Source: a phage. Taken from it: a DNA stretch of 64,000 nt. The notes beneath the pieces are model-generated. The model worked only from the letters and a program-made list of their open reading frames with translations, did not search any database and was not told the origin of the DNA. The stretch is taken from sequence record PX670417.1; one strand, given 5' to 3'. This document shows, in pieces, positions 18,670-20,501 of the stretch (within the stretch, counting starts at the first letter, position 1; each line of letters begins with the position of its first letter). The position numbers and the translations under genes were made by a program.

Positions 18670-18699
18670 GAGCAGCATAAACCAACGGGTACTCACCAG

Positions 18700-18738
18700 C
18701 ATCACTTAAGAGTCTTTGAAAAGGGTTTTTAAGTGATG
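18700..18738 (+). other. long hairpin (10-bp stem CATCACTTAA / TTAAGTGATG), copy 1
   Basis: Perfect 10-bp inverted repeat with 19-nt loop; second copy at 20224-20262. Confidence 0.5.
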
Positions 18739-18749
18739 TGTAGCTCGGT

Positions 18750-18815
18750 CAGGTATGGTGCGGTGGTGTAAGGTGGTGTCAGGTGTAGTATGGTGCGGTG
18801 AGGTTCGGTATGGGT
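18750..18815 (+). repeat. GGT-rich degenerate short tandem repeat tract (R1a)
   Basis: ggtatggtgcggtggtgtaaggtggtgtcaggtgtagtatggtgcggtgaggttcggtatggg; 5-6 nt periodicity. Confidence 0.6.
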
Positions 18816-18819
18816 AGTT

Positions 18820-18852
18820 AGTCTCAGCTACATTAAAATGAGACTTATCTTT
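18820..18852 (+). other. conserved hairpin AGTCTCA-gctacattaaaa-TGAGACT followed by T-run (terminator-like), copy 1
   Basis: 7-bp stem; near-identical copy at 20329-20353; variant copy at 20197-20222 keeps pairing through compensatory changes. Confidence 0.55.
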
Positions 18853-18885
18853 TTAAAAGGTCTTTAAGAGGGTCTTTTAATAAGG

Positions 18886-18950
18886 TGTGGTAGGGTTAGG
18901 TGGAGTTGGGTATGGTGTGGTGTGGCACGGTGTGGGTGGATGGTAGTAGC
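18886..18950 (+). repeat. GGT-rich degenerate short tandem repeat tract (R1b)
   Basis: gtggtagggttaggtggagttgggtatggtgtggtgtggcacggtgtgggtgg. Confidence 0.6.
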
Positions 18951-18951
18951 C

Positions 18952-18967
18952 ACGTTAAAAATCTACC
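18952..18967 (+). other. hairpin GGTAG-N6-CTACC; counterpart at 20457-20482 is GGCAG/CTGCC
   Basis: Stem differs from R2 copy by a compensatory T/A to C/G change. Confidence 0.45.
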
Positions 18968-19043
18968 AAGTTTCTAAAGAGTCTTCTGTTGAGGGTTCTT
19001 TACAAACAACTTAACAATCAACTAAAGTGTGGAGCTAAATGCT

Positions 19044-19631
19044 ATGAAACTGCTAAATATCAAAATCACTGGTACTCGTCCTTTCTTGAGCCATAACGAT
19101 ACGTTGTCAGACCCATTAAACCCTCTGACAAAATATCACAAGTCTCTGTCCAGTAAACGTAAAAAGACTGACGAAGACTATGCGCTCTTAGCAGAAAGCC
19201 AACTGGTAACTTCTTGTTACTACGATGAGCAACTTGGTTTTGTTATGAACGGTGAGATGATTGAGGCTTGTATCAAGTCTGGTGCAAAACTCAACAAACT
19301 TGGTAAGGTAATTGACCGAGCCATTATGCTGACAGATGTAGTCTTCCCAATGACTATCAAGAACTGTCCAGCAAACCCACAAGAACTTGCTAAGAATCCA
19401 GACTTTATCTATGCTAAGTCTGTTAAGATTGGTACAGCACGAGTTATGAGCTACCGTCCAATCTTCCGTGACTGGTCTGTAGAGTTTGGTTTGATGTTTG
19501 ATGAAGAGCAAATCACCAAAGAGGAACTTCTGATGGTTCTGGAAAATGCTGGTAACCTTTGTGGTGTAGGTGATTGGCGTCCACGCTTTGGTCGTTTTTC
19601 TGTAGAAGTTATTTCAGAAGGTAACGTTTAA
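19044..19631 (+). CDS. hypothetical protein
   Basis: ORF track frame (GTG at 19029); more likely start ATG 19044 with GGAG RBS; flanked by repeat regions R1 and R2. Confidence 0.55.
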
Positions 19632-19633
19632 TT

Positions 19634-20074
19634 ATGAATACAAAAGCATTAGCAGCAAAGTTTAGTTACGGCGACACTGTATCACATTCCGAGATGGACA
19701 CCTTCTTAGGTATTGTGAAGCCAACCTATCAAGGTGACATTGTTAAGTACGAAGATGAAATGAAGGCTTATGCACTTACACGTCTAAACCGACTTGAGAA
19801 GTTTATTGAAAAGCTTCTTAAAGAAGAGAAGATTTATCTGGTTGCTTCAATGGGTGTTGGTTATCGTGTGGTTGAACCTAAGCATCAAGCAACTATTGCA
19901 AAACGCAAAATGTCTGGTAAGATTGGTCGAGCTTTAAAGCAAGCCACTCAAGCAATTGAGAATGTGAACACTATGGCGCTTAGTCATCAAGAACGTTCAC
20001 GACTGATTGAACAGCAAAACCATTTAGCTGCTATGAAAGCTAACATTAACAAGCAACGTAGAAAACCTTTCTAA
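19634..20074 (+). CDS. hypothetical protein
   Basis: ORF track 146 aa; followed by terminator. Confidence 0.55.
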   Translation: MNTKALAAKFSYGDTVSHSEMDTFLGIVKPTYQGDIVKYEDEMKAYALTRLNRLEKFIEKLLKEEKIYLVASMGVGYRVVEPKHQATIAKRKMSGKIGRALKQATQAIENVNTMALSHQERSRLIEQQNHLAAMKANINKQRRKPF

Positions 20075-20085
20075 GTTGACTAGGT

Positions 20086-20110
20086 AGCCTCTTCGGAGGC
20101 TCCTTTTTAA
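20086..20110 (+). terminator. rho-independent terminator (AGCCTC-ttcg-GAGGCT + T-run)
   Basis: Stem 20086-20101 then CCTTTTT; same hairpin sequence as terminator at 4456-4473 in opposite orientation. Confidence 0.65.
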
Positions 20111-20139
20111 AAGGTCTTTTAAGAGGGTCTTTTAATGAG

Positions 20140-20196
20140 GTAAGGTGCGGTCTGGCAAGGCATGGTATGGTTGGGTGAGGTGAGGTATGGGTAGTT
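20140..20196 (+). repeat. GGT-rich degenerate short tandem repeat tract (R2a)
   Basis: taaggtgcggtctggcaaggcatggtatggttgggtgaggtgaggtatggg. Confidence 0.6.
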
Positions 20197-20222
20197 AATC
20201 GGAGCTACATTAAAATTCGATT
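20197..20222 (+). other. variant hairpin AATCGGA-gctacattaaaa-TTCGATT
   Basis: Same loop as 18820 and 20329 hairpins but different stem sequence that still pairs (three compensatory differences incl. one G-T wobble). Confidence 0.55.
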
Positions 20223-20223
20223 A

Positions 20224-20262
20224 CATCACTTAAGAGTCTTCTAAGAGGGTTTTTAAGTGATG
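20224..20262 (+). other. long hairpin (10-bp stem CATCACTTAA / TTAAGTGATG), copy 2
   Basis: Same stem as 18700-18738; loop differs at a few positions. Confidence 0.5.
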
Positions 20263-20264
20263 TT

Positions 20265-20328
20265 CGGTAGGGTCTGGTAGGGTAAGGTCTGGTCTGGTAG
20301 GGTCTGGTAGGGTGAGGTATGGGTAGTT
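20265..20328 (+). repeat. GGT-rich degenerate short tandem repeat tract (R2b)
   Basis: gttcggtagggtctggtagggtaaggtctggtctggtagggtctggtagggtgaggtatggg. Confidence 0.6.
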
Positions 20329-20360
20329 AGTCTCAGCTACATTAAAATGAGACTTACCTT
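20329..20360 (+). other. conserved hairpin AGTCTCA-gctacattaaaa-TGAGACT followed by T-run, copy 2
   Basis: Near-identical to 18820-18852 including flanks (about 80 nt direct repeat 18806-18888 vs 20318-20399). Confidence 0.55.
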
Positions 20361-20394
20361 TTTAAAAGGTCTTTAAACAGGGTGTTTTAATAAG

Positions 20395-20456
20395 GTGCTG
20401 TATGGTGGGGTAAGGTAGGGTTAGGCGAGGTCAGGTGAGGTTTGGTATGGAAGGAT
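20395..20456 (+). repeat. GGT-rich degenerate short tandem repeat tract (R2c)
   Basis: gtgctgtatggtggggtaaggtagggttaggcgaggtcaggtgaggtttggtatgg. Confidence 0.6.
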
Positions 20457-20501
20457 GGCAGTAGCCTTATAAAAAATCTGCCAAATAAGCTATAAAATCT
20501 G

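Follow-up and report, generated by a model that had tools for sequence, protein, structure and literature searches.

Viral Interference Programmable Repeat (VIPR) was first described in 2026 as an RNA-guided system that silences DNA; its authors proposed it as an ancestor of CRISPR effector proteins (10.64898/2026.04.26.720920; 10.64898/2026.04.26.720927). For phage SUSP1 (phiSUSP1), the mechanism of the effector Vipr was demonstrated, and the vrRNAs are expressed as ~100-nt RNAs, co-purify with Vipr, and repress transcription; in other VIPR types, hammerhead ribozymes are interspersed in the vrRNA arrays (10.64898/2026.04.26.720920; 10.64898/2026.04.26.720927). VIPR is a new mode of RNA reading DNA, in which the message resides in two of every five RNA bases and is read against two of every three DNA bases. 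According to the preprints, it resembles class 1 CRISPR-Cas, in which Cas7 forms a filament on crRNA, in that a RAMP-fold protein polymerises on a guide RNA, a thumb periodically flips bases out, and a variable guide is joined to a constant structured handle. Unlike class 1 CRISPR-Cas, VIPR has no repeat-spacer array and no cas1/cas2 or other cas genes, its guide is noncontiguous (2/5 bases), the target is read at 2/3 bases, and the outcome is silencing rather than cleavage.

Two other systems are close in purpose or in form. The lytic Vibrio phage ICP1 carries CRISPR-Cas guides that target PLE, a chromosomal satellite that parasitises it, and the target DNA is destroyed. Both ICP1 CRISPR-Cas and VIPR are phage-borne, RNA-guided, and directed against satellites, whereas the machinery and guide logic differ and VIPR represses transcription. 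The trp leader bound by TRAP consists of (G/U)AG-NN repeated 11 times with a 5-nt period; TRAP is a closed ring with one subunit per unit, and the spacers carry no information. VIPR shares the number of units (~11), the 5-nt period, the division into three conserved and two spacer bases, and the binding of a single protein subunit to each unit, but it forms an open helical filament, and its "spacers" are the message.

The stretch of DNA analysed here (the window; 64 kb, PX670417.1) is a Felix O1-like phage genome (Felixounavirus). The original prediction had recognised two structured repeat regions around a cassette of two unknown genes. We conclude with near certainty that these regions and the cassette together form a complete type II VIPR locus of the phiSUSP1 clade in Felixounavirus. 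The "structured repeat regions" consist of five vrRNA guide genes placed on either side of the gene for their protein partner: vr1 and vr2 lie upstream, followed by vipr (19044-19631) and vap1 (19634-20074), and vr3, vr4, and vr5 lie downstream. The locus sits between a DNA ligase gene and a small secreted-protein gene, as in SUSP1, and agrees with the published VIPR description on every point testable by computation. It also shares with phiSUSP1 the vrRNA architecture (a GGYNN tract and a pseudoknot tail), the target satellite family, and the 1-nt-skip code. It differs from SUSP1 (locus L014) in having five vrRNAs (two upstream, three downstream) rather than four (one upstream, three downstream), in its guide (NN) sequences, and in a beta-type tail, AATCGGA/TTCGATT, that is absent from SUSP1. 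The VIPR explanation is already published in the two 2026 preprints, and this locus adds no new principle; the present analysis is an independent, purely computational replication of the VIPR code and its natural target. An early literature search on Felixounavirus intergenic repeats and Felix O1 small RNAs, before the Vipr match, returned nothing relevant. CRISPR-Cas does not describe the locus, which has composite units of ~130 nt in place of repeats and spacers, no Rfam CRISPR-repeat match, and neighbouring genes without Cas domains.

The two genes turned out to encode the effector Vipr and the accessory protein Vap1. The product of vipr (19044..19631; all features are given on the + strand) is a RAMP-family protein that matched PDB 36pp_D, "SUSP1 Vipr protein", over its full length with 191/195 identical residues (98%, E = 6e-128). 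Fourteen contact residues were named for SUSP1 Vipr, with position 175 given as T (10.64898/2026.04.26.720927). Thirteen of them are present here (H17, K33, R39, E71, M72, K82, G87, K88, R138, C173, D177, W178, and R179), and position 175 is V both here and in the PDB chain. The match to 36pp_D covers the minimal RAMP architecture of RRM core, G-loop, and thumb, and the G-loop sequence is conserved. The product of vap1 (19634..20074; phrog_5926) is identical at 145/146 positions (99%) to that of the gene after vipr in phiSUSP1 and had no Pfam or PDB match. For both genes, the Pfam search was empty and PHROGs returned only families of unknown function. Several candidate readings were dropped after the match of vipr to PDB 36pp: a boxA/nut-like or cold-shock-protein motif in the hairpin loop; an R-loop origin, G-quadruplexes, or an array of Chi or primase sites; and a type III antitoxin mimic or TRAP-like ring site.

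Because this protein is 98% identical to SUSP1 Vipr, we infer that it works in the same way. One Vipr protomer would bind each pentamer, flip out the GGY bases, and present the NN pair; in the filament, the NN dinucleotides would then pair with double-stranded DNA, one target base in three being passed over, and transcription of the target would be silenced. The phage would aim this system at a parasitic satellite in E. coli chromosomes.

Repeat analysis revealed five copies of one composite unit of ~125-145 nt across the two regions, each vrRNA comprising a tract of 10-15 GGYNN pentamers and then a ~34-nt tail. As the original prediction had stated, the regions contain no ORFs other than trivial ones of 30-35 aa, and near-identical direct repeats are present (18748-18867 and 20257-20376, 80% identical over 120 nt). 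The GGT-rich tracts, treated there as filler between hairpins, are the functional guide, and each hairpin taken as a main element does no more than cap the 3' end of its RNA. The tracts follow a strict 5-nt GGYNN period: the motif GGTNNGGTNNGGTNNGGT, with at most one mismatch, occurred 38 times against 0.06 expected, always on the + strand and within the two regions. The vr1 tract (18737..18811) has 15 pentamers with NN = GT TC CA AT GC GG AA GG CA GT AT GC GA TC AT; vr2 (18884..18933) has 10, GT AG TA GG TG AT GT GT AC GT; vr3 (20139..20188) has 10, AA GC CT AA AT AT TG GA GA AT; vr4 (20261..20320) has 12, TC AG CT AG AA CT CT AG CT AG GA AT; and vr5 (20394..20448) has 11, GC AT GG AA AG TA GA CA GA TT AT. 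All five tracts fall within the published range of 9-16 YNNGG repeats with conserved GGY and hypervariable NN. In a count of 904 pentamers (73 distinct arrays), G occupied position 1 in 78% and position 2 in 98%, and position 3 was T or C in 100%, whereas positions 4 and 5 were hypervariable, 84 of 105 arrays being distinct.

A 5-nt period with three conserved and two variable bases, ~11 units, and flanking hairpins would also be expected of binding arrays for a ring-shaped TRAP-like RNA-binding protein, or of an RNA sponge for a host protein. We consider this extremely improbable: the partner was identified by its PDB match and assembles into a helical filament rather than a ring, and a sponge would make the NN bases uninformative, whereas here they specify satellite DNA. 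Attenuation of the TRAP type does not fit either, as the binder is a RAMP filament and the only consensus terminator lies after vap1.

The ~34-nt vrRNA tail folds as an H-type pseudoknot, and the covarying hairpins that had first drawn attention to the regions are its stem 2 (S2). The vr1 tail (18812..18845, alpha type) consists of GG, S1 GTAG/CTAC, S2 AGTCTCA/TGAGACT, and an A-rich loop 3, and the vr4 tail (20321..20354, alpha type) is identical to it. The other tails are vr2 (18934..18967, gamma type; S1 GTGG/CCAC, S2 GGTAG/CTACC), vr3 (20189..20222, beta type; S1 GTAG/CTAC, S2 AATCGGA/TTCGATT), and vr5 (20449..20482, delta type; S1 AAGG/CCTT, S2 GGCAG/CTGCC). Both predicted copies of the AGTCTCA-gctacattaaaa-TGAGACT hairpin were found (18820-18845 and 20329-20354), as was the variant AATCGGA...TTCGATT (20197-20222), which keeps the loop unchanged and differs at three stem positions, each altered in both arms and one now a G·U pair; this G·U pair is G-C or A-U in relatives. 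The second predicted hairpin was placed correctly at 20457 (GGCAG/CTGCC), but its GGTAG/CTACC counterpart starts at 18942 rather than 18952, a shift of 10. In the covariation analysis of the pseudoknot, including the vr1 tail, 92.7% of cells were paired and 9/11 pairs changed on both sides, with both stems covarying; when the partner was slid by 1-3 columns as a control, only 28-38% were paired.

The compensatory changes in both pseudoknot stems bear out the proposal that these are functional, structured RNAs under selection for pairing and not decayed duplicates. Decaying tandem duplications without function would explain why the number of units varies and why units recombine. This explanation has hardly any probability in our view, because GGY is conserved while NN varies freely, the pseudoknot stems compensate, and the target matches are specific.

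Each phage vrRNA is flanked on both sides by a 17-19-bp, G·U-rich RNA hairpin, here designated hairpin A. Copy 1 (18699..18739, beta type) is a 19-bp hairpin with a fold of -18 kcal/mol (z = -5.8). Copy 2 (18846..18887, alpha type; -11.5 kcal/mol, z = -3.4), like copy 1, was also supported by pair counts, and copy 3 (18970..19007, gamma-spacer type; -13.6 kcal/mol, z = -3.1) lies directly 5' of the vipr ribosome-binding site. Copy 4 (20101..20142, alpha type) overlaps the T run of a terminator and shares the alpha-type sequence in the alignment; copy 5 (20223..20263, beta type) was defined by repeat analysis and covariation counts, and copy 6 (20356..20397, alpha type) by repeat analysis and alignment. 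The predicted duplicated hairpin with a 10-bp stem, CATCACTTAA...TTAAGTGATG, was recovered at 18700-18738 and 20224-20262, and its "conserved loop" is itself paired via G·U wobbles; the pair counts of the inner stem were GU:22, UG:22, and UG:22. No Rfam covariance model matched 18600-20600 up to E = 1, and at the gathering threshold only tRNAs were found in the whole window.

These G·U pairs also bear on whether the elements act as DNA, for example as a replication origin or R-loop zone, a packaging site, or partition-type iterons near replication genes. The G-rich non-template strand downstream of a strong promoter and the position beside the ligase gene agree with such a role, to which we nevertheless assign a negligible probability. 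Many G·U pairs of the helices would be A·C mismatches on the other strand, copy 1 of hairpin A folds at -18 kcal/mol on the + strand and at -10.1 kcal/mol on the - strand, and the vrRNA copy number ranges from 0 to 6 among close relatives. As an RNA element of a VIPR locus, hairpin A resembles the hammerhead ribozymes of other VIPR arrays in being a structured RNA between successive vrRNAs. It is a plain hairpin that lacks a ribozyme motif and is unmatched in Rfam; any cleavage would need a host or phage nuclease. Hairpin A is a candidate for punctuation that may help to define vrRNA ends in a polycistronic precursor. The vrRNA carried by the satellite itself has no hairpin A.

Promoter P1 (18642..18669; TTGACA-16-TATACT, 11/12 consensus matches) lies upstream of vr1, vr2, vipr, and vap1, with an inverted repeat (18657-18665 / 18690-18698) extending across its -10 element. 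An intrinsic terminator (20086..20108; AGCCTC-TTCG-GAGGCT and then a T run) follows vap1. The promoter scan found no consensus promoter between this terminator and vr3-vr5, all of which lie downstream of it; the best candidate within hairpin A, TTAAAA-17-TTTAAT, failed the scan criteria. The locus ends with a terminator-like hairpin (20483..20535; 19-nt arms and then a T run), whose loop contains the -35 element of promoter P2 (TTGACA-17-TATTTT). By analogy with SUSP1, vrRNAs would be produced from this locus.

With a strong promoter on one side, the first gene on the other, and stable RNA hairpins of their own, the upstream units might act in cis, as leader, attenuator, or riboswitch-like RNAs controlling the two enclosed genes. 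This is very unlikely: the same units occur downstream of the genes and persist in phages without the cassette, in satellites the unit is an independent gene that has a promoter and a terminator to itself, and the variable bases correspond to foreign DNA when one particular spacing is applied. The original suggestions of small RNAs and protein-binding scaffolds were close to the truth, whereas that of attenuators was not, as the elements are trans-acting guide RNAs.

The target is a ~12-kb satellite that 505 of 5,426 complete E. coli genomes carry; E. coli EC12 (NZ_CP070229.1) is one satellite-bearing strain. The satellite encodes tape-measure and baseplate proteins, as published for the VIPR target. 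We searched with the published code (NN, skip one base, NN) and required an NN match of 80% or more. Of the five guides, four matched the satellite at this level, and only at a skip of 1; skips of 0, 2, or 3 gave 14-19 NN matches, which is background only. The vr1 guide matched 26/30 NN bases in the satellite tape-measure gene, with a contiguous core of 24/24; vr4 matched 20/24 (the first 16 contiguous) in the tape-measure gene of satellite L169; and vr5 matched 20/22 in a 387-nt satellite gene. All three sites are in frame, two of them in the tape-measure gene. The vr3 guide matched 18/20 NN bases in an intergenic region of the satellite, 121 nt upstream of a 705-nt gene. A pattern scan of 12 satellite loci and IMG/VR found no target for vr2, and the IMG/VR pattern matches of vr4, seven low-complexity hits on unrelated contigs, were judged to be chance. 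The best NN matches of the guides within the window itself were also at background (14-19): the phage does not target itself. Among 82 distinct guides from 29 related phage loci, 59 passed the same 80% cut-off with a 1-nt skip, compared with 2-4 guides with other skips. All 59 matches were inside the satellite, although it made up only 61% of the searched bases, and most matches in coding sequence were in frame, the wobble position of each codon being the one skipped. As four of five guides of this phage and 59 of 82 guides of the clade match the satellite under the 1-nt-skip rule, we conclude that the locus is an anti-satellite weapon.

Three features that are absent from the main text of both preprints provide leads on how VIPR is built and evolves: the 17-19-bp G·U-rich hairpin flanking each vrRNA, a natural variant matching precisely what a deletion between two identical tails would leave, and ~100 related, Felix O1-like phages that have no vipr and keep intact, satellite-matching orphan vrRNAs. 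L008 and Felix O1 are examples of relatives without vipr. The variant, phage L008, corresponds exactly to recombination between the identical tails at 18807-18846 and 20316-20355, which deletes the cassette and uses the vr4 tail as one arm; the cassette had indeed been predicted to lie between recombining direct repeats. The orphan arrays were not detectably degraded, with perfect GGY in 71% of pentamers compared with 76.5% in vipr-bearing loci. We tentatively propose, as a possibility that we think is more probably wrong than right, that hairpin A is a processing signal and that the tails and hairpins are recombination handles that leave orphan vrRNAs dependent on Vipr in trans. Cutting of hairpin A, for example by host RNase III, would free the vrRNAs from a polycistronic precursor, as hammerhead ribozymes do in other VIPR types, and recombination at the identical tails and hairpins would exchange guides among phages and remove or reinstate the vipr-vap1 cassette. 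Orphan vrRNAs would then work only with Vipr supplied by a co-infecting relative.

About one-quarter of the pentamers deviate at G1 (TGT or AGT), unlike the strict GGY contacts of the published structure, and such pentamers also occur in the stretch of vr1 that matches its target core perfectly.

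The two-gene cassette lies downstream of a DNA ligase gene, which directly precedes the VIPR (Viral Interference Programmable Repeat) region. Searching with the 2-kb region gave 238-239 matching phage records; almost all belong to Felix O1-like myophages (genus Felixounavirus), and the top matches are at 98.8-99.4% identity. In a PDB sequence search, the product of the first cassette gene (19044-19631, + strand) matched chain D of 36pp, 'SUSP1 Vipr protein', over its full length (E = 6e-128, 191/195 identical). Of the 14 contact residues that 10.64898/2026.04.26.720927 names, it keeps 13 (H17, K33, R39, E71, M72, K82, G87, K88, R138, C173, D177, W178, and R179); residue 175 is V in this Vipr and in the PDB chain, versus T in that preprint. 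The second product (19634-20074, + strand) is identical at 145 of 146 residues to that of vap1, the gene after vipr in SUSP1. VIPR systems were described for phage SUSP1 in two bioRxiv preprints (10.64898/2026.04.26.720920; 10.64898/2026.04.26.720927). According to these, SUSP1 Vipr is a minimal RAMP that polymerizes on ~100-nt vrRNAs, in which 9-16 YNNGG repeats precede a constant tail that contains a pseudoknot. One protomer holds each GGY sequestered and exposes the two N bases for pairing with double-stranded DNA, where every third base of the target is skipped; binding silences transcription, and the natural targets of the SUSP1 clade are mostly found in a satellite phage of E. coli (10.64898/2026.04.26.720920; 10.64898/2026.04.26.720927). 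In our analysis, the phiSUSP1 locus had one tail upstream and three downstream, in agreement with the published layout. The element studied here is a member of the system described in 2026 and is therefore already known; the remaining interest attaches to the hairpins flanking the vrRNAs, the junction formed by recombination, and the guides found without vipr.

Repeat analysis revealed five copies of one ~125-145-nt composite unit (starting at 18700, 18847, 20102, 20224, and 20357), each running from a long hairpin (hairpin A) through a G-rich tract to a second hairpin. The tract and its 3' tail form the guides vr1 and vr2, upstream of vipr, and vr3-vr5, downstream of vap1. The tracts called 'GGT-rich' in the original prediction are present, but their organization is tighter than that label suggests: GGTNN recurs strictly every 5 nt, with 10-15 units in each guide. 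With at most one mismatch, GGTNNGGTNNGGTNNGGT had 38 matches (0.06 expected), all on the + strand and only in the two repeat regions. The array set comprised 105 sequences, 84 of them distinct, from 29 related loci. For the 73 that come from vipr-bearing loci, the pentamer has G at position 1 in 78% and at position 2 in 98%; position 3 is always a pyrimidine (T in 90%, C in 10%), and positions 4 and 5 vary. T or A replaces the G of position 1 in about a quarter of units.

All hairpins of the original prediction were located in the sequence, with GGTAG starting at 18942 and not, ten bases off, at 18952. The two reported to covary correspond to stem 2 of the tail pseudoknot. Gathered by sequence profile alone, the tails sort into four types, among which stem sequences change and pairing is kept: GTAG/CTAC, GTGG/CCAC, and AAGG/CCTT in stem 1, and AGTCTCA/TGAGACT, AATCGGA/TTCGATT (also TCCGATT; AATCGAA/TTCGATT), GGTAG/CTACC, and GGCAG/CTGCC in stem 2. 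Among 20 distinct tails, 92.7% of cells were paired and both sides had changed in 9 of 11 pairs, whereas only 28-38% were paired when the partner was slid by 1-3 columns. The original observation is confirmed, and its interpretation was partly right.

Guides vr3-vr5 lie downstream of an intrinsic terminator, and no consensus promoter was found between it and them. At the end of the locus (20483-20535), a terminator-like hairpin with 19-nt arms (89% complementary) precedes a T run and holds in its loop the -35 hexamer of promoter P2, so that the signals ending vr5 and starting the next gene overlap. An inverted repeat at 18657-18698 (arms TGGTGAGTA ... TACTCACCA) spans the -10 element of promoter P1 (18642-18669), its left arm being upstream of the expected transcription start. 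In three relatives without any unit (L012, L015, and L021; ~5120-5180), which share the motif TATATAGGAAC, the arms differ yet pair (GCAAGT/ACTTGC, AGTGGGT/ACCCACT, and GACGGGT/ACCCGTC).

When complete E. coli genomes were searched with the region by distant BLAST, 130 chromosomes showed a ~82-nt vrRNA-like match. The match belongs to a ~12-kb element that is integrated at one of two sites, yecE (a DUF72 gene) or the tonB-yciI interval, and that encodes a serine recombinase as well as tape-measure and baseplate proteins. This element is the satellite of the preprint, and its family occurs in 505 of 5,426 complete E. coli genomes. The family (E. coli EC12, NZ_CP070229.1, locus L152 4938-16937, and 11 other loci) is highly mosaic, and IS elements often interrupt it. 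The satellite carries its own vrRNA, with a promoter, ~13 pentamers, a gamma-type tail, and a terminator, within a 2.6-kb unannotated stretch; vipr is not among the annotated genes of the satellite loci examined.

The NN codes of all five guides were scored on 232 kb of sequence from 12 satellite loci. At a 1-nt skip, vr1 matched the tape-measure gene in frame at 26/30 NN (24/24 in a contiguous core), as did vr4 at 20/24 (the first 16 contiguous); vr5 matched a 387-nt gene in frame (20/22), and vr3 an intergenic site 121 nt upstream of a 705-nt gene (18/20). No target of vr2 was found in these loci, its best matches being the satellites' own vrRNA, which were discounted. Control skips of 0, 2, and 3 bases gave maxima of 14-19. 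The window's own maxima were also 14-19, and therefore there is no self-targeting. Clade-wide, 59 of 82 distinct guides had a match of at least 80% NN at skip 1, versus 2, 4, and 3 at skips 0, 2, and 3; all 59 matches fell within the satellite, which accounts for just 61% of the sequence searched. The code and the target reported in the preprints are thus independently replicated by computation.

Hairpin A occurs six times, on both sides of each vrRNA except after the last. The 10-bp-stem hairpin of the original prediction is real, but its helix is far longer (17-19 bp), the 'conserved loop' being paired through G.U wobbles. The predicted fold is -18 kcal/mol (z = -5.8) on the + strand versus -10 kcal/mol on the - strand; nearly all inner pairs are G.U or U.G and would mismatch on the opposite strand. 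Three sequence types keep pairing, with 88.6% of cells paired and seven pairs changed on both sides. Variants in two relatives (L004 6725 and L017 6870) have a 22-nt apical insertion, AATTATATTCGATAGAGTATCTCAT, and keep the outer stem. Hairpin A had no match in Rfam, was not found by term searches in the main text of the two VIPR preprints, and is absent from the satellite's own vrRNA. As far as could be checked, it has not been described before. A distant Pseudomonas-phage VIPR locus also has hairpins between its vrRNAs, unrelated to hairpin A. We infer that hairpins between vrRNAs may punctuate the precursor.

The proposal of a recombination-prone cassette was borne out by a relative (L008) whose sequence equals that of the window except for the loss, with a seamless junction, of the whole stretch that separates the vr1 tail from its identical copy at vr4. 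The vrRNA region is present in 239 phage records and Vipr, always in single copy, in 132 (118 in the SUSP1 clade); therefore, about 100 or more relatives, among them Felix O1 (record FO1a), have retained one or two vrRNAs but lack vipr. These orphan arrays are intact, with perfect GGY in 71% of pentamers versus 76.5% in vipr-bearing loci, and 6 of 11 orphan-only guides matched the satellite. GU169904.1 (Staphylococcus phage SA1, 147 kb) and two 'Campylobacter' records carry a Felix O1-type VIPR locus with 99.5% identical Vipr, which suggests that these database entries are chimeric or mislabelled. Elsewhere in the window, 25 tRNA genes cluster at 47991-53552 (- strand), among them one (49928-50002) whose anticodon loop was not assignable by ARAGORN ('tRNA-???', anticodon 'ac').

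Scanning IMG/VR for seven consecutive GGTNN units retrieved many unrelated viral contigs with constant GGT and variable NN, often with several arrays per locus. In L034 (5466-6496), six arrays linked by a constant 13-nt spacer, GGTAAGGCTAATG, lie immediately after a 211-aa ORF. Its product is distantly homologous to Vipr (32% identity, 74 aa) and has a C-terminus, GIGDFRPSHGRY, resembling the end of the first cassette gene product. In L151, gaps of 10 nt separate seven arrays, one 189-kb jumbo contig (L038-L041) has at least a dozen, and L066 and L135 are further unrelated contigs with degenerate arrays. All of these contigs probably represent further VIPR types in which the arrays are built differently. 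In Pseudomonas phage LESphi2 (OQ594955.1, L171 1040-1420), three GGC-rich vrRNA-like arrays, each followed by a short tail hairpin and then a second GC-rich hairpin, lie upstream of a 39%-identical Vipr, and the locus adjoins a cI repressor and a sigma-factor gene.
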